NCBI GenBank assembly: GCA_038889235.1
Contig: JAWAHN010000002.1
Span: forward strand, 403,300 to 435,299
Origin: Candidatus Jordarchaeales archaeon
GTDB lineage: Archaea > Asgardarchaeota > Jordiarchaeia > Jordiarchaeales > Freyrarchaeaceae
Direction: 5' to 3'
DNA: 32,000 nucleotides
Shown here: piece after piece, positions 12,859 through 21,777 of the stretch
Layout: the number at the start of each line of letters is the position of its first letter
How positions within the stretch are numbered: position 1 is the first letter of the stretch
Translations under genes and position numbers: made by a program
Notes under the pieces: generated by a model
What the model saw: the letters and a program-made list of their open reading frames with translations, nothing else
Database searches by the model: none
What the model was told of the DNA's origin: nothing

Positions 12859-13485
12859 ATGCATTTGATCAAGCGCGGTGTGAGGGTTTTAGGTATTGCG
12901 GAAAGCTTCGTTAAAGGCGCCAAGCGCTCCATAATTTCGGGTGTCGTCATGAGAGGGGACCTACAGATCGACGGCTTCTCCTTTGCCACGGCCACAGTCG
13001 GTGGAATGGATGCAACGCAGAGCGTGCTTAAGCTTTACGAGGACCTGAACAGGAGGGATGTCAACGTCATAATGCTGAACGGATGCGTCATAAGCTGGTT
13101 CAACATAATAGACTTGGACGCCGTTCACGCAGCAACAGCCAAACCGTTGATCGCCGTTACATACGAGGAGTCGGAGGGGCTTGAAAAGTACCTCAAACAG
13201 TACTTCGAAGACTGGGAGCAGAGACTAGCTGTATACAGGCGGCTCGGCGAAAGGGAGAAGGTCACGCTTCACACAGGGCACCAAGTGCTAGTCCGCTACA
13301 TAGGCATATCACAGAGGAAAACTCGCCTAATACTGAACCGCTTCACGCTTCAAGGAGCAGTTCCAGAGCCCCTCAGAGTAGCCCGCATACTTTCAAGAAG
13401 CATTTTAAGAAGCGGACTAGTGCCAGAGGCAACGAAGAAAGAGGAAACGACGATGAATGTAAATGGTGGCGACTTCACGTTTTAA
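12859..13485 (+). CDS. DUF99 family protein (endonuclease V-like / uracil-DNA endonuclease fold)
   Basis: VRVLGIAESF, VGGMDAT, GCVISWFNIID and C-terminal VPEPLRVA motifs. Confidence 0.85.
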   Translation: MHLIKRGVRVLGIAESFVKGAKRSIISGVVMRGDLQIDGFSFATATVGGMDATQSVLKLYEDLNRRDVNVIMLNGCVISWFNIIDLDAVHAATAKPLIAVTYEESEGLEKYLKQYFEDWEQRLAVYRRLGEREKVTLHTGHQVLVRYIGISQRKTRLILNRFTLQGAVPEPLRVARILSRSILRSGLVPEATKKEETTMNVNGGDFTF

Positions 13486-13644: not shown

Positions 13645-14520
13645 CTAAAGGTTGACCAGGTTTTCGACCGGGCTCTTGTTGAGGTCTAAGCCGAGCTTGC
13701 GCGGCTCTATTCCCATGGCAAGCCCAACGAGCTGAGTTAGGTAGAAGACTGGAAGCGAGATTTCGGGGTCGTTCATAACCTGCCTTATGACATCCTGTCT
13801 CGCATCGTAGTTTGCCTGGCAGGCGGGGCATGAGGTCACCAGTGCGTCGAACCCCCTAGCCTTAACTGCTTTAAGCTTCCAGCCACAGAGACGGGCAACC
13901 AGCTCGGGTTCGACAACGTTTGCCCCAGCCCCGCAGCACTCAAGCCTCTCAGGGTAGTCTCCAGTCTTAGCTCCTATCGCTTCAAGTATTGCCTCCATCT
14001 TCGTTGGCTTTTCAGCGTCGTCAACACGGGGAAAGTCAGCCGGCCTGATTATGTGGCAGCCGTAGTGGCATGCCACCTTGAACCCCAAAGGCTTCGTGAC
14101 AACGCTCTTAACCTTCTCCAATCCGATCTCGTCGTGCAACACTTCTATCGTGTGCAGGATCCTAACTTGGTTGCTGGGGTCGAACTCCAGACCCTCTTCC
14201 CAGAGTAGTTCGTTAACCCAGCCGGCAAGCTTGTCGCGAGCCGCTAAGATGTGTTGTGCTTCGCAAAGCGATATGTGGCATCCATTGCATGGGACAAACA
14301 GGGGGTAACCGGATTTCTGTGCCTCAGCCAGTATGCGGCTCGCGAGGTAAAGCCACACCCTTGTGCTAACCTGCATCAAGGGGTAGCCGCAGCAAGCATT
14401 CCATCCTAGCTCGACGAGCTCCACGCCAAGTTTCGGAAAGACCTCGCGCACCGAGACCTCATACCCGTACTCCACAGTGGCTATCATGCAACCCCAAAAA
14501 ACTTTGTACTTAGCCCCCAC
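13645..14520 (-). CDS. hdrB: Heterodisulfide reductase subunit B (two CCG domains)
   Basis: FWGC...ACCGYP...PCNGC and CHYGCH...ECCGAG...SCPAC, giving two intact CCG domains. Confidence 0.93.
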   Translation of the reverse strand: MGAKYKVFWGCMIATVEYGYEVSVREVFPKLGVELVELGWNACCGYPLMQVSTRVWLYLASRILAEAQKSGYPLFVPCNGCHISLCEAQHILAARDKLAGWVNELLWEEGLEFDPSNQVRILHTIEVLHDEIGLEKVKSVVTKPLGFKVACHYGCHIIRPADFPRVDDAEKPTKMEAILEAIGAKTGDYPERLECCGAGANVVEPELVARLCGWKLKAVKARGFDALVTSCPACQANYDARQDVIRQVMNDPEISLPVFYLTQLVGLAMGIEPRKLGLDLNKSPVENLVNL

Positions 14521-14521
14521 A

Positions 14522-15019
14522 CTATTCCCTCCTAATTTCAGCGGTGAGCTTCTCCAAGTTTCGCCTGAAAGCCTCCATGTTCGCAGGCTTCCCTAAATCT
14601 GGAAGTTTAAGCGTGTCCCTGGAAACAAAGTCGAAGTCCTTGTTCATCACCTCTTGCGGCGGCTGTATTGTAGCGTAGCGAACCACGTTCTCGAGCATAA
14701 CCCTGTACCCTTTGGGCGGCGGTGTGCCGCGAGCTACGAGTAGGTTTCTCAAGGCGAGTATCAGCATCGCAGGCCTAGCGTTTTGAGGACATCTAGTATC
14801 GCACTTGAGGCACTGGCAACATGACCACACCCCCCTCTCCACGCCCTCAATTAAGCCGAGCTTGAACAGCTGGATTATTGCGTGGGGGATACACTCTGCG
14901 TCAACCATGACGCAGCCCGAAGAACAACGGGCGCAGCTGTAACACACCGACGGCGTAAGGTTTGCAACCTTTTCCTTCAGCTTCTCTAAAAGCTCGTCGA
15001 CCTCCCTAAGTGCCTGCAC
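14522..15019 (-). CDS. hdrC: Heterodisulfide reductase subunit C (2x[4Fe-4S])
   Basis: CYSCARCSSGC and CCQCLKCDTRCP; lies between mvhD and hdrB with gaps of 3 nt and 1 nt. Confidence 0.9.
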   Translation of the reverse strand: MQALREVDELLEKLKEKVANLTPSVCYSCARCSSGCVMVDAECIPHAIIQLFKLGLIEGVERGVWSCCQCLKCDTRCPQNARPAMLILALRNLLVARGTPPPKGYRVMLENVVRYATIQPPQEVMNKDFDFVSRDTLKLPDLGKPANMEAFRRNLEKLTAEIRRE

Positions 15020-15022
15020 ACC

Positions 15023-15445
15023 TTACACCTCCACAGACTCCTTCTTGAGGGGATTTGGCCCCAGTTTCCTGAGCTCCTCCACGAAGTCGCTGACTATGCG
15101 TGCAAACTTTTCCCCCTCCGACGCTGACACCCATTCAACCCTCACCCTCTCCGGTTCTATCCCAAGCTGCTTGAGCATTTCGCCGAGCAGAGCCGCCCTG
15201 CGCTGCGTCCTATAATTGCCGTTGACGTAGTGGCAGTCCCCAGGATGACACCCCGAGATTAGCACTCCATCAGCACCGTTCTTAAGAGCGTAGAGTACGT
15301 GGGTCGGATCAACCCTGCTGCTGCACATAACCTTTATCACTCTAATGTTCGCAGGGTACTCCATTCTACTCATTCCCGCCAGATCCGCGCCGCTGTAACT
15401 GCACCAAAAGCACAGAAAGGCTATCACAAGTGGCTCGTAACTCAA
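15023..15445 (-). CDS. mvhD: MvhD ([2Fe-2S] hydrogenase/Hdr adaptor subunit)
   Basis: CFWCSYSGADLAG, RVIKVMCSSRV, GCHPGDCHY and WVSASEG; ATGA overlap with the hdrA stop. Confidence 0.95.
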   Translation of the reverse strand: MSYEPLVIAFLCFWCSYSGADLAGMSRMEYPANIRVIKVMCSSRVDPTHVLYALKNGADGVLISGCHPGDCHYVNGNYRTQRRAALLGEMLKQLGIEPERVRVEWVSASEGEKFARIVSDFVEELRKLGPNPLKKESVEV

Positions 15446-17409
15446 GTGCCCACCTCCGATATTAGGGCTTTTATCTGGGCTAGGATCTGCTTCTCCGTGA
15501 AGCCTTTCAACTCCAAGGCGTTGCTAGGGCAAGCTGCAACGCAAGCCCCACACCCCTGGCAGAGTGCGTCCACCACCTTGGCCCTTTTCCTTCCCTCGTG
15601 CTCCGCCAGCCTTATCGCCTTATAGGGGCACACTCCCACGCAAACTTCACAGCCCGAACATATTTCAGGGTTCACGGACGCCACCAGCGGCTCGACTTCA
15701 ACAACTCCCTTTGAGAGGAGGGCTAACGCCTTGGCTGCCGCCGCGCTGGCTTGGGCAACCGTCTCAGCTATGTCCTTCGGGCTGTGGCAGCATCCCGCGA
15801 AGAATACCCCACGTGTGCTCGCTTCAACAGGCTGAAGCTTCGGGTGTGCCTCCATGAAGAAGCCCTCAGAGTTCAAAGACACGTTCAACATTTTTCGGAG
15901 CTTTTCGAAGTCCTCTGTCGGCTCTAAGCCCGTCTGGAGCACCACCATGTCCACTCTGAGCTCGAGCAAGCGTCCCACCGTCTGGTCGAAGACCTTAAAC
16001 CTGAGCTTCCCGTCGACGTCCTCAAGTATCTCCGAGGGGACTCCGTGTATGAAGCGTACACCCATGTCCCTCAGTCTCCTGTAGAATTCCTCGTACCCCT
16101 TCCCGGCAGTCCTCATGTCTATGTAGCATACGTAGACCTCTGTTTCGGGGCTCTCCTCTTTTATGAGGAAGGCCTGTTTGAGCGTCGCCATGCAACCTAT
16201 CTTGCAACACCAACCATTATACTTCAAGTCCCTTGAGCCAACGCACTGTATGAAAGCCACGCTTTCAGGCTTCTTGCCCGAGGACGTCAAGATGGCTCCG
16301 CCCGTCGGGCCCGAAGCACTCGAGAGTCTTTCGAGCTCTAACCCGGTGATGACGTTCTTGTACTTGCCATACCCCAGCTGCGGAACTCTCCTAGCGTCAA
16401 ACGTCTTGAAGCCTACTGCGACAATTATTGCCCCAACCCTTATCTTCACCTCTTCGTCCTTCTGGTTAAAGTCTATTGCCCCGCGAGGGCAGGCTTCGAC
16501 GCAAAGCTTGCAGCGCCCATACTTCATGTAGAGGCAGTTTACCGGGTCCACAGTGTACTTTAAGGGGACTGCTTGGGGGAACGGGACGTATATTGCTTTC
16601 CTCTTGCTGAGCCCGACGTCGAACTCGTTGGGAACCTTCCTCGGACAAGCGTCGGCGCACGCCCCACACCCAGCGCACAGTTTTTCGTTCACATAGCGCG
16701 CCCTCCTTAGAACAGTCACTTCGAAGTTTCCAACGTAACCTTCAACTCTAACAACCTCGCTGTACGTGAGGAGGGTTATGTTTGGGTGTTTTGCAACGTC
16801 AACCATCTTGGGGGTCAAGATGCAGGCGGCGCAATCAATTGTGGGGAATGTCTTGTTAAGCTGCGCCATGTGTCCTCCTAAACTGGGGGATTTTTCAACA
16901 AGGTAGACTTTTAGCCCGGCGTCGGCTAGGTCTAGAGCCGCCTGTATTCCAGCTATACCACCACCTATAACGAGAACCGATCTCTCGACGGGCACAATCT
17001 TCTTCTCCAACGGCTCGAGCAACCTAGCCTTGGCTACAGCCGCTCTCACGAGGGCTTTAGCTTTCTCCGTGGCCTTCTCTTTCTCCCTGAAGTGAACCCA
17101 CGAAACCTGCTCCCTTATGTTCGCCACTTCTAAGAGGTAGGGGTTTAAACCCGCCGACTCCAAGGTTTTCCTAAACGTGCTCTCATGCATCTTAGGGGAG
17201 CAAGCAGCTATGACCACACGGTTCAGGTTGTACTTTTTAATGTCCTCCCTTATCACACCTTGTCCTTGGTCTGAACAAGTGTACATTATGTTTCTCGCTA
17301 CAACAACGCCTGGCAGAGTAGCTGCATACCTGGCGACCTCCTCGACGTCCACTACTCCAGCAATGTTCGTGCCACAGTGGCAGACGTAAACGCCTACACG
17401 TATTTCCAC
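15442..17409 (-). CDS. hdrA: Heterodisulfide reductase subunit A (FAD, electron-bifurcating)
   Basis: VYVCHCG, AACSP, NIRE, GGGIAG FAD-binding motif, FPTIDCAAC, inserted ferredoxin domain, CVGSRD and C-terminal 2x CxxCxxCxxxCP. Confidence 0.96.
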   Translation of the reverse strand: MEIRVGVYVCHCGTNIAGVVDVEEVARYAATLPGVVVARNIMYTCSDQGQGVIREDIKKYNLNRVVIAACSPKMHESTFRKTLESAGLNPYLLEVANIREQVSWVHFREKEKATEKAKALVRAAVAKARLLEPLEKKIVPVERSVLVIGGGIAGIQAALDLADAGLKVYLVEKSPSLGGHMAQLNKTFPTIDCAACILTPKMVDVAKHPNITLLTYSEVVRVEGYVGNFEVTVLRRARYVNEKLCAGCGACADACPRKVPNEFDVGLSKRKAIYVPFPQAVPLKYTVDPVNCLYMKYGRCKLCVEACPRGAIDFNQKDEEVKIRVGAIIVAVGFKTFDARRVPQLGYGKYKNVITGLELERLSSASGPTGGAILTSSGKKPESVAFIQCVGSRDLKYNGWCCKIGCMATLKQAFLIKEESPETEVYVCYIDMRTAGKGYEEFYRRLRDMGVRFIHGVPSEILEDVDGKLRFKVFDQTVGRLLELRVDMVVLQTGLEPTEDFEKLRKMLNVSLNSEGFFMEAHPKLQPVEASTRGVFFAGCCHSPKDIAETVAQASAAAAKALALLSKGVVEVEPLVASVNPEICSGCEVCVGVCPYKAIRLAEHEGRKRAKVVDALCQGCGACVAACPSNALELKGFTEKQILAQIKALISEVGT

Positions 17410-17578
17410 GCATCTGCCTCCACAGCAATCCTTCTAGATCGGCTTCGTCGAACCCGAAGAGACATTCACCCATATTACATTAACGCTTAACTTCTTTTTA
17501 CAAGCGCTTTTGGAAAAAATATATTTCTCGGATGAGTTTACCATTTAAACGTTGAAACGTGGTGGGGGCTTTAAGTGA
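17410..17578. promoter_or_regulatory. Divergent promoter region shared by hdrA-mvhD-hdrCB and the glcD-like operon
   Basis: 169-bp AT-rich spacer between head-to-head ORFs, with TATA-like AAAAAATATATTT and TTTAAA elements. Confidence 0.55.
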
Positions 17579-19021
17579 ATGTTGGACCAAAATGAGATAT
17601 ACCGTTTTCTCGTGAGCGTCGTCGGCGAGGATGATGTGAGCATCGATATCGCTGACCTCTTCGCCTATAGCATGGATGCCTCGTTGAGGATGAGCATGCC
17701 AGCCGCCGTAGCGAGGCCAGAGAACAGGGAGGAGGTCGCTGAGATACTCAAATGGGCTGACGAAAATAGGGTTCCGATAGTTCCCAGAGGAGCTGGGACA
17801 AGCCTAAGCGGGCAAGCTGTCCCTGTGAAGGGAGGCGTCATTCTCGACATGTGCAAGATGGACCGTATAAAGGAGGTCAACCTTGAGGACAGGGTGGCTG
17901 TAGTTGAGCCGGGCGTGATATACGACGAGCTCAACAAGGTGCTAGGTAAGCTTGGGTACGTTTTCCCGCCAGACCCTGGATCAGCTATAGCTTGCACTGT
18001 CGGTGGCATGGTCGCCAACAACGCCAGCGGCATCAGAGCACTAAAGTACGGGGCGACAGTGGACCACGTGCTTGGACTCGAGGTGGTCCTTCCCGGGGGA
18101 AAGATAATTAGGACTGGAGGAAGGGTTTGGAAGTCTTCTTCCGGTCTCAACTTGACCAAGCTGTTCGTTGGCTCTGAAGGGACGCTGGGCGTCTTCACCG
18201 AGATAATACTTAAGATAACTCCCAAGCCCCGCTACTATGGGCTGACCATCCCAGTCTTCCAGAAGCTGGAACAAGCCCTAGAGGCTACTGTCGAGATAAT
18301 GAAGAGGGGCATCCTCCCATCGGCGATGGAGCTGCTCGACGACATCTGTATAATGCTCATAAACAATGTGCTTGAAGACAAGCTGCCGATGGGAGAAGCT
18401 TTGTTATTCATAGAAAACGACGGCTACAGTGAGAATACTGTTGAGGAAGAGAGCAAGATGGTTAAAGAGATATGTGAGGAGAAGGGCGCCCAGAAGATAA
18501 TATACACGACAGATAACAAGAGGATAGAAGAGTTGATGAGGCTGCGCCACACGCTGGCCAACATATTGTCAAAGCTCAGGGGGGAAAATGTCCCCTTAAA
18601 CAACATACAGGACTTCGCTGTCCCAATAGGAAAGATACCGGAAGCCGTCCGCGAGCTAAAAGAAATGGCGCGGAGCCAAGGGAGACTGATGGTAATGTTC
18701 GGACACATAGGTGACGGCAACATACACCTCGGAACAGCAATCAACCCTTGGAAGGAGGAAGATAGGAGGGCTGGCGCCGAGTTCGCCAGGATGCTTGCAG
18801 AGATAGTCGTCAAGAAGTACGGTGGGACCCTGTCAGCCGAGCACGGTCTCGGCGTCACTAAGGCGAGCCTGGTAGAGCTGGAACACGGCGACACACTAGA
18901 GTACATGAGGGCTATAAAGAGGATCTTCGACCCGCACGGGATAATGAACCCCGGTGTTATGGGGCTTCTCGAAGTTCCAAAAGACGAGTTCGTTTACATG
19001 CCAGCAAAGGTGGTGGTCTAA
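17579..19021 (+). CDS. glcD: FAD-linked 2-hydroxyacid dehydrogenase (GlcD / D-lactate dehydrogenase family)
   Basis: PRGAGTSLSG, PPDPGS, GSEGTLG, and the metal-binding GHIGDGNIH and EHGLG motifs. Confidence 0.9.
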   Translation: MLDQNEIYRFLVSVVGEDDVSIDIADLFAYSMDASLRMSMPAAVARPENREEVAEILKWADENRVPIVPRGAGTSLSGQAVPVKGGVILDMCKMDRIKEVNLEDRVAVVEPGVIYDELNKVLGKLGYVFPPDPGSAIACTVGGMVANNASGIRALKYGATVDHVLGLEVVLPGGKIIRTGGRVWKSSSGLNLTKLFVGSEGTLGVFTEIILKITPKPRYYGLTIPVFQKLEQALEATVEIMKRGILPSAMELLDDICIMLINNVLEDKLPMGEALLFIENDGYSENTVEEESKMVKEICEEKGAQKIIYTTDNKRIEELMRLRHTLANILSKLRGENVPLNNIQDFAVPIGKIPEAVRELKEMARSQGRLMVMFGHIGDGNIHLGTAINPWKEEDRRAGAEFARMLAEIVVKKYGGTLSAEHGLGVTKASLVELEHGDTLEYMRAIKRIFDPHGIMNPGVMGLLEVPKDEFVYMPAKVVV

Positions 19022-20137
19022 GTGGAGGAGCTTAATAAGTTTAGAACGCAGATTGCTATGTGCAACGTGTGCGCCTGGTGTAGAACAAAGTGCCCGGTTT
19101 ACAGCACCACAAAGTGGGAGTCTGAGGGTCCCAGGGGCAGGATGGTTCTGCTCAGAGGAGTTGTCTACGGCCTGCTCGAGCCGACACCAAGTGTCGTCGA
19201 AAAAATATACGAGTGTACTTCGTGCGCCATGTGCAACCTGAACTGCGACGCACAAATATCCCCCCTGGAAGTAATACTCGGCGCCCGGAGGGCCTTCTCT
19301 AGCGCCGGCATAGCTCCTCCTCCACCAAACAAGAAGATAGACGCGAGGGTTTTAAGAGACAAGAACCCCTACGCTGCTCCTCAGGAAGAGAGATTCCAGT
19401 GGCTAGACGTGTCTTTGCCCGAAAAAAGCGAGAATGTGTTGTTCATCGGGTGCGTCAACGCTTACAGGCAGACTGAAACAGCCAAGAACGTTGTCTCGAT
19501 ACTCACAGCCGCGGAGTACGATTTCACTGTGCTAAAGGGTGAAGTGTGCTGTGGGATGCACCCGTACTGGGATGGTCAAACCGAGCTGGCGAAGCAGCTA
19601 GCAGAGCAGAACACGTCGCTCTTCGACAAGGCGGGGGCTTCGACGCTGATCACCCCGTGCGCAGGGTGCTACTCAACCTTCCTCAAAGCTTACCCGCAGC
19701 TCGTCGAGAACTTCGGCTTCAAGGTCAAGCATGTCTCAGAGGTTATAAGAGACCTCGTGAAGGAAAGTGCCATCAAGTTAAAAGACGGAGCCGTCAAAGT
19801 CACGTATCACGACCCATGCCACCTTGGAAGGCACTGCAACTTTTATGACCCGCCTAGGGAGCTCATAAAGCTCATTCCGGGTGTCAAGCTCGTAGAAATG
19901 GAGAACATGATGGCTGAGGCAAACTGTTGCGGTGGAGGCGGCGGACTATTCACCTTGAAGCCGGAGTTGTCAGTTCGCATCGCCGAGAGACGGGTTAGGG
20001 AGGCTGAGGCAACGGGCGCGAAGTACCTTGTTACGACGTGCCCGCTGTGCAGAACAAACCTCGACCTGGCTTCTAAGAGGCTTGAATCACACGTGAAGGT
20101 GTGCGACCTAGTAGACTTGGTGGCCAGTCGCCTCTAA
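19022..20137 (+). CDS. Fe-S oxidoreductase, GlcF/HdrD-like (2x[4Fe-4S] plus two CCG domains)
   Basis: CNVCAWCRTKCP, CTSCAMC, FIGC..CCG..PCAGC and YHDPCH..CCGGGG..TCPLC; starts immediately after the glcD stop. Confidence 0.9.
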   Translation: MEELNKFRTQIAMCNVCAWCRTKCPVYSTTKWESEGPRGRMVLLRGVVYGLLEPTPSVVEKIYECTSCAMCNLNCDAQISPLEVILGARRAFSSAGIAPPPPNKKIDARVLRDKNPYAAPQEERFQWLDVSLPEKSENVLFIGCVNAYRQTETAKNVVSILTAAEYDFTVLKGEVCCGMHPYWDGQTELAKQLAEQNTSLFDKAGASTLITPCAGCYSTFLKAYPQLVENFGFKVKHVSEVIRDLVKESAIKLKDGAVKVTYHDPCHLGRHCNFYDPPRELIKLIPGVKLVEMENMMAEANCCGGGGGLFTLKPELSVRIAERRVREAEATGAKYLVTTCPLCRTNLDLASKRLESHVKVCDLVDLVASRL

Positions 20138-20156
20138 GCGGGGAGGCTGCAGCACT

Positions 20157-20825
20157 GTGTGCACGGTCAAGGCGGTAGTGTTTGACCTCGACGGAACCCT
20201 AATAAAAATTCCCTCAACAAATTTTTTCGACAAACTTTTGGTTAAAACCCTAAGCAAGCTGAACGTCCCAGTCCCCCCAGCAGGTGAAAGAGCAAAACTG
20301 TGGGTTAGCGGGCAGGGACACGAGGAACTCCTGAGGAGCTGGGGGGTGAGTGACCCGTACGTTTTCTGGAGGACGTTTGACGAACTAGACTACGAGACCA
20401 GAAGGGAACTAATAAGGCGCGGCGTCATACGCCCATATGAGGATGTTTCGTTTCTCGAGGATCTTAGCCTCAGGGTTCCTCTGGGCTTGGTCACTAATAC
20501 TTCCCCCAGAGTTACTTTTCTTGAAGTGGAAGAGTTCGGTCTCAGAAAGTTCTTTAAAGTCATAGTGGCTCTCGGAACGGAGAGGCAGAGCGAGGCGAAG
20601 CCTGAAACAGCAGGAGTGCTTGAAGCGTTCAGAGTGCTCGGGTGCCATCCTTCAGAGAGCATCATGGTGGGAGACAGTGACGCAGACGTGCTTGCCGGGA
20701 GAAAGGTTGGGTCAAAGGCCGTCGTGGTTAAACGCCCGCACGTAAGGTTGAAAACTGAGCCGGACGCATACATTGAAAGCCTATACGAGCTCAAGCAATT
20801 AGTCCACCAAACAAGAGATGTATGA
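20157..20825 (+). CDS. HAD-superfamily hydrolase (phosphoglycolate phosphatase-like)
   Basis: Motif I FDLDGT, motif II VTN, motif III KP and motif IV GDSDAD; 19 nt after the GlcF-like gene. Confidence 0.88.
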   Translation: MCTVKAVVFDLDGTLIKIPSTNFFDKLLVKTLSKLNVPVPPAGERAKLWVSGQGHEELLRSWGVSDPYVFWRTFDELDYETRRELIRRGVIRPYEDVSFLEDLSLRVPLGLVTNTSPRVTFLEVEEFGLRKFFKVIVALGTERQSEAKPETAGVLEAFRVLGCHPSESIMVGDSDADVLAGRKVGSKAVVVKRPHVRLKTEPDAYIESLYELKQLVHQTRDV

Positions 20826-21069: not shown

Positions 21070-21777
21070 TTACACTGTGTATAGTTCTACCCCATGTGTT
21101 ATGCAGGCCGTTTTTGCCTTATCGTCAGCATAAGGGGAGACTATTATCAATCGGTCGACTTTCCTACCCTCGACTTTACTGTAAAATTCGGCTTTCCTCT
21201 TCACAAGAAAAACATCCGAAATTTTAGCATGCGATGTGACCTCAACAAGTATAACTTTTCCATCCGAAATCGCCAGGTCTATTTCAACTTGCTCCTTATA
21301 ACCGAAAACGTATCCTTCATGGTCAGTGCGAATCCACCTCTCCACCTTGAAGCCGAACTCCTTCTCCAGTATCCCTCTCAAGCTCTCCCTGAAGCACTCT
21401 TCAGCCATAATCCCCCATCTCGCACCCAAAGCATCCAACTTCCTATTTATAACACTAAAGTCCTCCCTGAGACTCCTGACCTCCTCCCACAGCTTGTTCT
21501 GCCCTTCCCTGAGACTCCTGACCTCCTCCCACAGCTTGTTCTGCCCTTCCCTGAGACTCCTGACCTCCTCCCACAGCTTGTTCTGCCCTTCCCTGAGACT
21601 CCTGACCTCCTCCCACAGCTTGTTCATGTTCTCCCATAGCTTGATCTGGTTTTCCTCGAGTTTGTCCATTCTTTTGAGTATTTCTGCTAGTCCCAAGTAG
21701 CCTGCGACAGCATACCTGAACTCCTTGTCCCTCTCAAGAAGCTCCATGAACCTCTCCTTTAACTCGACGTCCATCAC
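21070..21777 (-). CDS. Coiled-coil plus PD-(D/E)XK nuclease-like protein (DUF3782-like archaeal family)
   Basis: N-terminal 'ELLERDKEFRYAVAGYLG', heptad repeats, 'ALGARWG' and C-terminal EIDLAI...VEVTS...RLIIVSP. Confidence 0.8.
   Translation of the reverse strand: MMDVELKERFMELLERDKEFRYAVAGYLGLAEILKRMDKLEENQIKLWENMNKLWEEVRSLREGQNKLWEEVRSLREGQNKLWEEVRSLREGQNKLWEEVRSLREDFSVINRKLDALGARWGIMAEECFRESLRGILEKEFGFKVERWIRTDHEGYVFGYKEQVEIDLAISDGKVILVEVTSHAKISDVFLVKRKAEFYSKVEGRKVDRLIIVSPYADDKAKTACITHGVELYTV
21464..21625. repeat. Perfect 42-bp tandem repeat, about 3.9 copies (14-aa unit QNKLWEEVRSLREG)
   Basis: The unit TCCCTGAGACTCCTGACCTCCTCCCACAGCTTGTTCTGCCCT starts at 21464, 21506, 21548 and 21590 (last copy 36 nt). 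Confidence 0.97.

Follow-up and report, generated by a model that had tools for sequence, protein, structure and literature searches.

Jordarchaeia, a class of Asgard archaea, have as many as 13 'Dld' genes, and an HdrD gene is collocated with most of these, according to the text of Sun et al. (2021, ISME Commun, PMC9723677). That text proposes that lactate electrons reduce the heterodisulfide of coenzyme M (CoM) and coenzyme B (CoB), and that an H2-evolving, confurcating heterodisulfide reductase (Hdr), HdrABC-MvhADG, re-oxidises the thiols together with reduced ferredoxin. It also reports comABCDE in these metagenome-assembled genomes, with CoB biosynthesis incomplete. Here we analyse a stretch of 32,000 nucleotides from a Candidatus Jordarchaeales archaeon (assembly GCA_038889235.1, contig JAWAHN010000002.1, positions 403,300 to 435,299, forward strand), called the window below, in which an hdrA-mvhD-hdrC-hdrB operon stands head-to-head with a glcD-like gene, a gene for an iron-sulfur (Fe-S) protein with two CCG domains, and a HAD hydrolase gene. 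Our leading reading, held tentatively, is that the two neighbouring units are coupled through a shared thiol/disulfide pool, perhaps with a shared control region, as in the published scheme. The coupling of lactate dehydrogenase to Hdr that the original prediction drew from this locus is thus plausible but not new, having already been published for Jordarchaeia.

Comparison with described systems

The genome holds the gene content of the published scheme, namely Dld-HdrD pairs, mvhAGD, hdrABC and comA, comB and comD, with six GlcD-like genes against the up to 13 Dld genes given in the text of PMC9723677. The class, the Dld-then-HdrD gene pair, the logic of passing lactate electrons to Hdr by way of CoM/CoB, and the CoM genes are the same as in the model that Sun et al. 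present for Sifarchaeia and Jordarchaeia. The text and legends of that paper treat the Mvh-linked Hdr and, its Fig. S15a neighbourhoods aside, make no mention of a hydrogenase-less hdrA-mvhD-hdrC-hdrB operon facing a Dld-HdrD pair.

Hdr units that have MvhD while mvhAG lies elsewhere or is missing are well established in methanogens, where MvhD partners can be shared or exchanged (PMC6019823). With the methanogen MvhAGD-HdrABC complex (PDB 5ODC; Wagner et al. 2017, as presented in PMC6019823) our operon shares the HdrA plan, the MvhD ligands, the HdrC motifs and the HdrB CCG domains. It differs in having no mvhA or mvhG, in carrying mvhD inside the hdr operon, and in an HdrB and HdrC that score under equivalog cut-offs; the organism moreover lacks Mcr, so that direction and disulfide may differ from those of methanogens. 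The best NCBIfam match for hdrA and mvhD is the F420H2-dependent HdrA2B2C2 of Methanosarcina acetivorans (Yan et al. 2017, as presented in PMC6019823), a system that operates with no partner hydrogenase. Its HdrA2 has HdrA and MvhD fused in one protein; here they are encoded by two genes, and neither reaches the 1100-bit cut-off by itself.

On the dehydrogenase side, Ldh-EtfAB (LctBCD) of Acetobacterium woodii (PDB 7QH2; PMC9232219) has a GlcD-family lactate dehydrogenase in common with our locus and the same need for reduced ferredoxin, but here the GlcD partner is a CCG/Fe-S protein and there is no EtfAB at the locus. GlcDEF, the Dld-II/LdhAB enzymes of sulfate reducers and TfrAB all consist, as the pair here does, of a flavoprotein and an Fe-S subunit with two CCG domains; TfrB, the best NCBIfam match of the partner, performs thiol/disulfide chemistry at these domains. 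Unlike those systems, our pair matches under curated cut-offs, has no GlcE and no evidence of a membrane or quinone connection, and has a flavoprotein of GlcD type rather than fumarate-reductase type.

Organisation of the locus

The seven open reading frames are all intact and tightly packed, as follows.

13645-14520, minus strand: hdrB, 291 residues, divergent, with two CCG domains (PF02754, 75 bits)
14522-15019, minus strand: hdrC-like, 165 residues, divergent two-[4Fe-4S] ferredoxin subunit
15023-15445, minus strand: mvhD, 140 residues, [2Fe-2S] adaptor protein (PF02662)
15442-17409, minus strand: hdrA, 655 residues, flavin adenine dinucleotide (FAD) and Fe-S subunit of soluble heterodisulfide reductase (NF040770, HdrA2)
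17410-17578, no strand: divergent control region (putative), a 169-bp spacer
17579-19021, plus strand: glcD-like, 480 residues, FAD-dependent D-2-hydroxyacid dehydrogenase by family (FAD_binding_4 and FAD-oxidase_C), the literature's 'Dld'
19022-20137, plus strand: HdrD/TfrB/GlcF-like Fe-S/CCG protein, 371 residues, Fer4_8 and two CCG domains (126.8 bits)
20157-20825, plus strand: HAD gene, 222 residues, HAD-IA family hydrolase/phosphatase, matching generic models only

On the minus strand hdrA and mvhD overlap by 4 nt, and gaps of 3 nt and 1 nt separate mvhD from hdrC and hdrC from hdrB. On the plus strand the gap between glcD and the CCG gene is 0 nt (TAA followed by GTG) and that between the CCG gene and the HAD gene is 19 nt. 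The gene identities and the translational packing described in the original prediction, with its spacer and gap lengths, hold up on checking the reading frames and on Pfam and NCBIfam search. So does its statement that the operon has no mvhA, mvhG or formate dehydrogenase gene: domain annotation of the window proteins found none of these, and no electron-transfer flavoprotein (ETF) domain.

Since the glcD and CCG genes share a frame and abut, we considered a read-through fusion of the two. This was rejected because stop codon and frame offset differ among close relatives, which have TAA plus GTG, TAG plus ATG, or TAA plus 1–3 nt.

The Hdr-MvhD proteins

HdrA matched the HdrA2 model NF040770 with 928.7 bits over model positions 1–642, and MvhD matched the same model with 193.4 bits over positions 647–774. 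The rough summed score of 1122 compares with a cut-off of 1100 bits, which is set for an HdrA-MvhD fusion whereas the genes are separate here. HdrA has its FAD/Rossmann motif at residues 144–182, inserted and C-terminal ferredoxin domains with CX2CX2CX3C motifs at 245, 584 and 617, an N-terminal cluster of cysteines at 10, 12, 45 and 70, and a central one at 389, 401, 402 and 406. MvhD scored 192.6 bits against PF02662 (gathering cut-off 22.3). Its residues C15, C41, C66 and C71 are invariant and C12 nearly so among 27 relatives, and these are the [2Fe-2S] ligands. With the MvhD encoded at the mvhAG locus of the same genome it shares 62% identity.

In a tree of 29 HdrA sequences, the window HdrA groups with its four orthologues from the family of the window genome (f1). 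The sister group of this f1 set is formed by the hdrA-mvhD-hdrC-hdrB operons of another Asgard family, f4 (SH-aLRT 99); Mvh-linked HdrA proteins, the copy on contig C3 of the same genome among them, form a clade apart from f1+f4.

The small subunits are less typical. The HdrC-like protein has both CX2CX2CX3C motifs and scores 37.1 bits against TIGR03290 (cut-off 160) and 38.7 bits against QmoC; its orthologues are 68–79% identical within f1 and 36% in f4. HdrB has PF02754 twice and scores 222.5 bits against TIGR03288, under the equivalog cut-off of 345.15 (the level of CoM-S-S-CoB as substrate), and is only 31–36% identical to every Asgard HdrB outside f1. Its CCG patterns are complete (C11..C43C44..C78xxC81 and C151..C195C196..C231xxC234). 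Counting the two in the GlcD partner, the full C...CC...CxxC pattern is present in all four CCG domains, so the four domains in two proteins originally described are all intact.

The dehydrogenase, its partner and the HAD protein

The GlcD-like protein contains PF01565 and PF02913 and belongs to the wider FAD_binding_4/FAD-oxidase_C family of D-2-hydroxyacid dehydrogenases. It is under equivalog cut-offs, at 393 against 567.9 bits for TIGR00387 and 244.1 against 897 for NF008408. Its best solved relatives are the mammalian D-lactate dehydrogenase 8jdc (255 bits) and Acetobacterium LctD 7qh2_C (239 bits), followed by glycolate oxidase 9qgz (237 bits) and D-2-hydroxyglutarate dehydrogenase (181 bits).

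The CCG partner combines PF13183 with two copies of PF02754; with its N-terminal two-[4Fe-4S] domain it has the HdrD/TfrB/GlcF architecture. CX2CX2CX3C motifs begin at residues 14 and 65, the CCG patterns span 144–216 and 266–343, and all 18 motif cysteines are invariant or nearly so among 18 relatives. The best NCBIfam model is TfrB (204.6 bits, cut-off 385), ahead of GlcF (78 bits, cut-off 333) and DsrK (75 bits). The glcD operon has no second FAD_binding_4 gene, hence no GlcE, nor an equivalog-level GlcF, such as a GlcDEF complex would have; and no etfA and etfB are encoded with the GlcD-type dehydrogenase at the locus, as in Ldh-EtfAB. Judged by these family and motif assignments, the two proteins most likely form a soluble two-subunit D-2-hydroxyacid dehydrogenase, with D-lactate as its substrate. 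A predicted structure of GlcD, the CCG protein and MvhD together gave a score of 0.00, a result with no verdict, which speaks neither for nor against binding.

The HAD protein matches PF13419 (74 bits) and exceeds the cut-offs of TIGR01509 and TIGR01549. Against phosphoglycolate phosphatase models (TIGR01449, NF009694-NF009700) it scores 38–59.5 bits, where cut-offs are 180–466; the best of these, 59.5 against a cut-off of 225, is exceeded by its score for PpaX (75.7 against 218). It is most likely the product of an unrelated generic gene appended to the glcD unit.

Conservation of the head-to-head layout

Conservation was assessed in a sample of 40 relatives, including the family of the window genome (f1) and its sister family (f2). 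GlcD orthologues are 87–90% identical in the same genus, 83% in a second f1 genus, 64–66% in f2 and 54% in family f13. The full divergon, HAD-CCG-glcD facing hdrA-mvhD-hdrC-hdrB, occurs in both sampled f1 genera, at protein identities of about 72–90% for the redox genes and 65–77% for HAD. In a third genome of the same genus it is interrupted by a contig end, and in the second f1 genus the spacer is enlarged to ∼740 bp. Within the dehydrogenase unit, glcD is followed by the CCG gene in every orthologous locus of three Asgard families (f1, f2 and f13). The HAD gene is beside glcD-CCG only in f1; elsewhere, in f2, f3, f6 and f12, it has single-copy relatives (40–46% identity), at 146 kb from glcD in one complete genome.

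Outside f1 the two units come apart. No hdr or HAD gene adjoins the glcD-CCG pairs of f2 and f13, and the nearest hdrA to the f2 pairs is 8–15 kb off and of another paralogue type. Of the conservation across Asgard archaea on which the original prediction depended, the part within f1 is borne out and the part beyond it is not: the hdr/glcD linkage is real within this family and is not kept outside it. Confinement to one family makes the linkage weak evidence for a dedicated hdr/glcD partnership.

A further divergon of this general kind was seen in family f16 (L020; G028:C132:1-9105), where frhB-mvhD-hdrA, the hdrA encoding selenocysteine (Sec), faces frhB-frhB-glcD-CCG. It is independent and made of other paralogues.

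Redox genes elsewhere in the genome

The genome (G000; 2.14 Mb in 8 contigs, 95% complete) is that of an Asgard archaeon of the Jordarchaeia, and DNA of the locus is present in hot-spring metagenomes. It contains six hdrA genes, two of them with in-frame TGA, six mvhD genes, and 27 CCG domains in ∼14 proteins; four of its six FAD_binding_4 (GlcD-like) genes adjoin a gene for a CCG protein. No McrA was found in this 95%-complete genome, which together with the lineage agrees with the original description of a probably non-methanogenic archaeon, and no DsrC was found in it either. The other genes on which the original prediction turned are there in some number: mvhAG once, at another locus, etfAB as two pairs, and a RuBisCO large-subunit gene once. 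A genome-wide search for a molybdopterin-type formate dehydrogenase partner gave two weak matches, of 54 and 46 bits, both far from Hdr loci.

The one [NiFe] hydrogenase, of Mvh type, is on contig C3, with its own mvhD and a divergent hdrA-hdrC-hdrB. The reservation attached to the original prediction, that mvhAG elsewhere might account for MvhD, is to that extent realised. At this locus two com genes, comB and comA, immediately adjoin mvhA-mvhG-mvhD in the same orientation, divergent from hdrA-hdrC-hdrB (C3:426805-435085; L012:6306-14601), and comD, over its curated cut-off, is at C3:289485-289946. No Ldh_2-type comC was found in the genome. Within 12 kb at the mvhAG locus there are also a GlcD paralogue (41% identity to the window GlcD), an Iso_dh-family gene and an HdrD-like gene. 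A GlcD paralogue was considered as the missing sulfolactate dehydrogenase and rejected on stereochemistry: (2R)-sulfolactate has the L-type configuration and GlcD-family enzymes are D-specific.

Both etfBA pairs lie away from the window, one of them beside another GlcD-CCG pair at 122–127 kb on contig C1. There etfB-etfA adjoins the GlcD-CCG pair and is convergent with it (C1:122058-127342; L018), which could represent a confurcating dehydrogenase of Ldh-Etf type. The original suggestion of an Etf-independent system therefore stands for the locus, with no Etf encoded there, and not for the genome as a whole.

Other hdrA paralogues have a partner module adjacent, in one case mvhDGA, in one an FrhB-like protein and in one a polyferredoxin; FrhB-like genes and a CofD-family gene are present in the genome. 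Two hdrA-mvhD paralogues (C1:439272-441637 and C1:746756-750872; L015, L016) each have in-frame TGA codons (two in hdrA, two in mvhD), which fits published accounts of HdrA and MvhD with selenocysteine in Jordarchaeia. One pair is followed by a helix-turn-helix-ferredoxin-FrhB-like gene and the other by a gene for a weakly FrhB-like Fe-S protein. At C1:297590-304004 (L014), genes for an hdrA-mvhD fusion (791 residues) and a 447-residue polyferredoxin are in a run with hdrC and hdrB, divergent from a gene for a luciferase-like oxidoreductase of F420-dependent type.

Proposed electron flow

The sequence shows which genes are present, that their cofactor motifs are intact and how far the layout is conserved; which substrate and disulfide are used, which way electrons flow and whether the units are coupled are inferences. 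The hdrA-mvhD-hdrC-hdrB operon would encode a soluble, flavin-based heterodisulfide reductase that is complete, MvhD adaptor included, and has no hydrogenase of its own. In the thiol-pool scheme, D-lactate would be oxidised to pyruvate by GlcD, and the electrons would pass through the two [4Fe-4S] clusters of its partner to the CCG clusters and on to a fairly high-potential disulfide, either a CoM-type heterodisulfide or another thiol carrier. The resulting thiols would be re-oxidised by HdrB and HdrC, and HdrA would merge these high-potential electrons with electrons of reduced ferredoxin, supplied by pyruvate:ferredoxin oxidoreductase. MvhD would be the exit for the merged electrons, on their way to an intermediate-potential acceptor; the simplest such acceptor would be the single MvhAG encoded elsewhere, yielding H2.

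The lactate/pyruvate couple lies at −190 mV, CoM-S-S-CoB at −140 mV and ferredoxin at ∼−500 mV. Lactate-driven reduction of CoM-S-S-CoB is feasible (exergonic) at these values, and formation of H2 from the thiols plus ferredoxin (∼−500 mV) is feasible at low H2. Lactate electrons could not be bifurcated from MvhD, the entry point in the original prediction, since a donor at −190 mV has much too high a potential to be split between ferredoxin and a −140 mV disulfide. Lactate could thus serve Hdr in only two ways, by disulfide reduction at CCG clusters or through a partner subunit plugging into HdrA. In the scheme preferred here the direction is the confurcating one: high-potential electrons enter at HdrB/HdrC as thiols and MvhD is the exit. 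The best explanation would accordingly not involve docking of GlcD onto MvhD, which serves the intermediate-potential carriers H2, formate and F420H2: what enters there at ∼−400 mV is split between ferredoxin and the disulfide (PMC6019823).

For the disulfide, called simply unknown in the original prediction, there are two concrete candidates, a CoM-containing disulfide (comA, comB and comD are present) and a lipoyl GcvH-like protein. 

Alternative explanations

Several observations weigh against coupling of the two units through a thiol pool. The glcD-CCG pairs of f2 and f13 lie amid unrelated genes (pgk, RACo, glucose dehydrogenase, KaiC, topoisomerase IB), and the sister hdrA-mvhD-hdrC-hdrB operon of f4 has no glcD neighbour, a GcvH-like gene being divergent from its hdrA instead; each unit thus occurs without the other. 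Neither hdrA nor mvhD was found within 10 kb of any of the 80 best GlcD-homologue loci in other species, a survey that took one genome per species, mostly bacteria at 33–44% identity, did not return the close Asgard orthologues and so says little on Asgard archaea. A CCG partner was present at 22 of these 80 loci and etfAB at one. With six hdrA and six GlcD-like genes in a genome, one chance adjacency inherited in a family is not improbable; from gene counts we roughly estimate the chance of immediate hdrA/glcD-like adjacency at a few percent per genome. The divergent HdrB and HdrC, under curated cut-offs, may act on something else. CoB biosynthesis is incomplete in the class according to the text of PMC9723677, and with no Ldh_2-type ComC the disulfide is known as candidates only.

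These points favour a rival in which the units are unrelated neighbours, GlcD-CCG delivering electrons to quinone or another acceptor, as in GlcDEF and Dld-II, and Hdr working with MvhAG or F420H2 independently of lactate. We regard this as unlikely, while the best placed of the alternatives. The genome is crowded with such genes (six hdrA, six mvhD, ∼14 CCG proteins and six GlcD-like genes), and identity within the single family that has the layout is high enough for shared descent to explain it. Orthologues of each unit stand alone elsewhere, Hdr genes are near none of the 80 wider GlcD loci, and an F420H2-dependent HdrA2 as the best NCBIfam match of hdrA and mvhD, in a genome with CofD-family and FrhB-like genes, suits a lactate-independent Hdr. 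On the other hand, the divergent orientation is kept across two genera, with the spacer as short as 169 bp, and the partner keeps complete CCG motifs of disulfide-reductase type with no gene for a membrane partner beside it. A second GlcD paralogue of the genome is 6.5 kb from the Mvh-linked hdrA, so that two of the six GlcD-like genes lie ≤8 kb from an hdrA against ∼0.27 expected by chance (a rough Poisson estimate, P ∼0.03), and f16 has a similar, independent divergon.

A direct supercomplex, the alternative nearest to the original prediction, is improbable. In it, GlcD-CCG would dock on HdrA/MvhD, either by way of MvhD or with the HdrC-like N-terminal domain of the CCG protein occupying the HdrC site of HdrA, and lactate and ferredoxin would be confurcated without a free thiol, in an Etf-independent analogue of Ldh-EtfAB. 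Other hdrA paralogues do have a partner next door (mvhDGA divergent from hdrACB; an FrhB-like gene after hdrA(Sec)-mvhD), and the partner subunit resembles a fusion of HdrC with HdrB. Against it, the operon already has an HdrC and HdrB of its own, the phylogenetic profiles are uncoupled, with each module found without the other in sister families, and lactate entry at MvhD for bifurcation is uphill (donor at −190 mV, acceptor mean ∼−320 mV).

Finally, the salvage route of the original prediction, in which HAD would act on 2-phosphoglycolate made by RuBisCO, GlcD-CCG would oxidise glycolate to glyoxylate and Hdr would take the electrons, is very improbable: it can call on the one RuBisCO large-subunit gene, a weak similarity of HAD to bacterial phosphoglycolate phosphatase models and the one solved 'glycolate oxidase' among good GlcD matches, but HAD is a generic HAD-IA protein at 38–59 bits where cut-offs are 180–466 and fits PpaX better, its relatives are single-copy, located elsewhere in other families and far from glcD in f2, it also occurs in f3, without an hdrA match at E ≤ 1e-80 in three sampled genomes, 2-phosphoglycolate needs O2 at RuBisCO in what is an anaerobe-type genome, and GlcD fits D-lactate dehydrogenases no worse than glycolate oxidase.

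GcvH-like proteins as an alternative disulfide

GcvH-like genes stand directly beside hdrA in families f4, f15 and f17 and within ∼6 kb of it in f12 and f7. The loci near hdrA are as follows.

L025:2338-2787 (G012), GcvH-like gene
G023:C112:85-531, GcvH-like gene
G036:C11:209591-210004, GcvH-like gene
G026:C74:1690-2100, GcvH-like gene
G039:C23:147581-147991, GcvH-like gene

The f4 copy, whose neighbour is an hdr operon of the clade sister to that of the window, was read in sequence and has G-K-W around the lipoyl lysine in place of the usual V-K-A; the copies of other families were located by search. The pattern recalls sHdr-LbpA and the idea of archaeal GcvH-HdrB (PMC9723716), in that the f4 sister operon faces a GcvH-like gene. 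Unlike sHdr-LbpA, the window has no GcvH-like gene, and the nearest of the type is on a different contig, next to Nuo-like genes. The genome contains three GcvH-like and two lipoate-ligase-like genes; no glycine-cleavage genes stand beside the two GcvH-like genes with annotated neighbours, the third being partly checked. 

The G-K-W type gene of the genome is divergent from a Nuo-like/group-4-hydrogenase-like cluster with NuoB, NuoC, NuoD-like and NuoH homologues (C1:547500-552950; L040:1501-6952). In f2 a GcvH of the G-K-W type adjoins a lipoate-ligase-like gene (G005:C475).

It is conceivable, though we consider it a long shot, that the f1+f4 Hdr clade, with its strongly divergent HdrB and HdrC, is a distinct hydrogenase-independent class acting on a lipoylated GcvH-like dithiol instead of CoM-S-S-CoB, with the f1 GlcD/HdrD-like pair as a dedicated second enzyme for that carrier. 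The lipoyl couple, at ∼−290 mV, would be a poor acceptor for lactate oxidation.

Spacer, transcripts and flanking genes

The 169-bp spacer contains an A/T-rich TATA-like box at ∼17515–17526, ∼55 nt upstream of glcD, and an element GTTTA..TTTAAACGTT at ∼17536–17553, both conserved in alignment with two same-genus genomes. Conservation and position suggest that box and element may act as control elements. We considered a regulon shared through TTTAAACGTT and dropped it, as evidence was lacking: of its 16 occurrences in the genome, the others are never at Hdr or GlcD loci.

Contigs from an RNA library (one metatranscriptome, of a strain ∼90–99% alike) match hdrB, hdrC/mvhD, hdrA, glcD and the CCG gene, and weakly HAD. 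Sequence of both units is thus present in an RNA library, which is weak evidence, since contigs also lie on the genes to either side and may stem from residual DNA; as contigs only, they say nothing of co-expression, transcript ends or levels. Another RNA run yielded no contigs at the locus, which is not evidence that transcripts are absent.

The remaining window genes are unrelated, and include genes for a GH31 glucosidase, an endonuclease dU, ABCE1, ABC transporters, a radical SAM protein and a DUF3782/PD-(D/E)XK protein. Two of these flank the locus: the endonuclease dU gene (12859–13485, plus strand) and the gene for the protein with DUF3782 and a PD-(D/E)XK nuclease-family domain (21070–21777, minus strand). 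At ∼21334–21366 and 21594, contigs from several runs are broken or diverge, suggesting a variable or repeated element there.

Implications

The locus adds no new principle, the coupling idea being published for the class and the linkage confined to one family. It does offer a defined set of seven genes that can be cloned to test a lactate-type dehydrogenase together with a complete Hdr-MvhD. A wider and more useful lead is that a GcvH-like gene recurs next to hdrA in other Asgard families; if the lipoyl-carrier reading were true, it would mean an Etf-free shuttle between 2-hydroxyacids or 2-oxoacids and ferredoxin in a lineage related to eukaryotes. The route by which organic-acid electrons leave Asgard archaea, and the disulfide that their many Hdr complexes use, bear on syntrophy models of the origin of eukaryotes.

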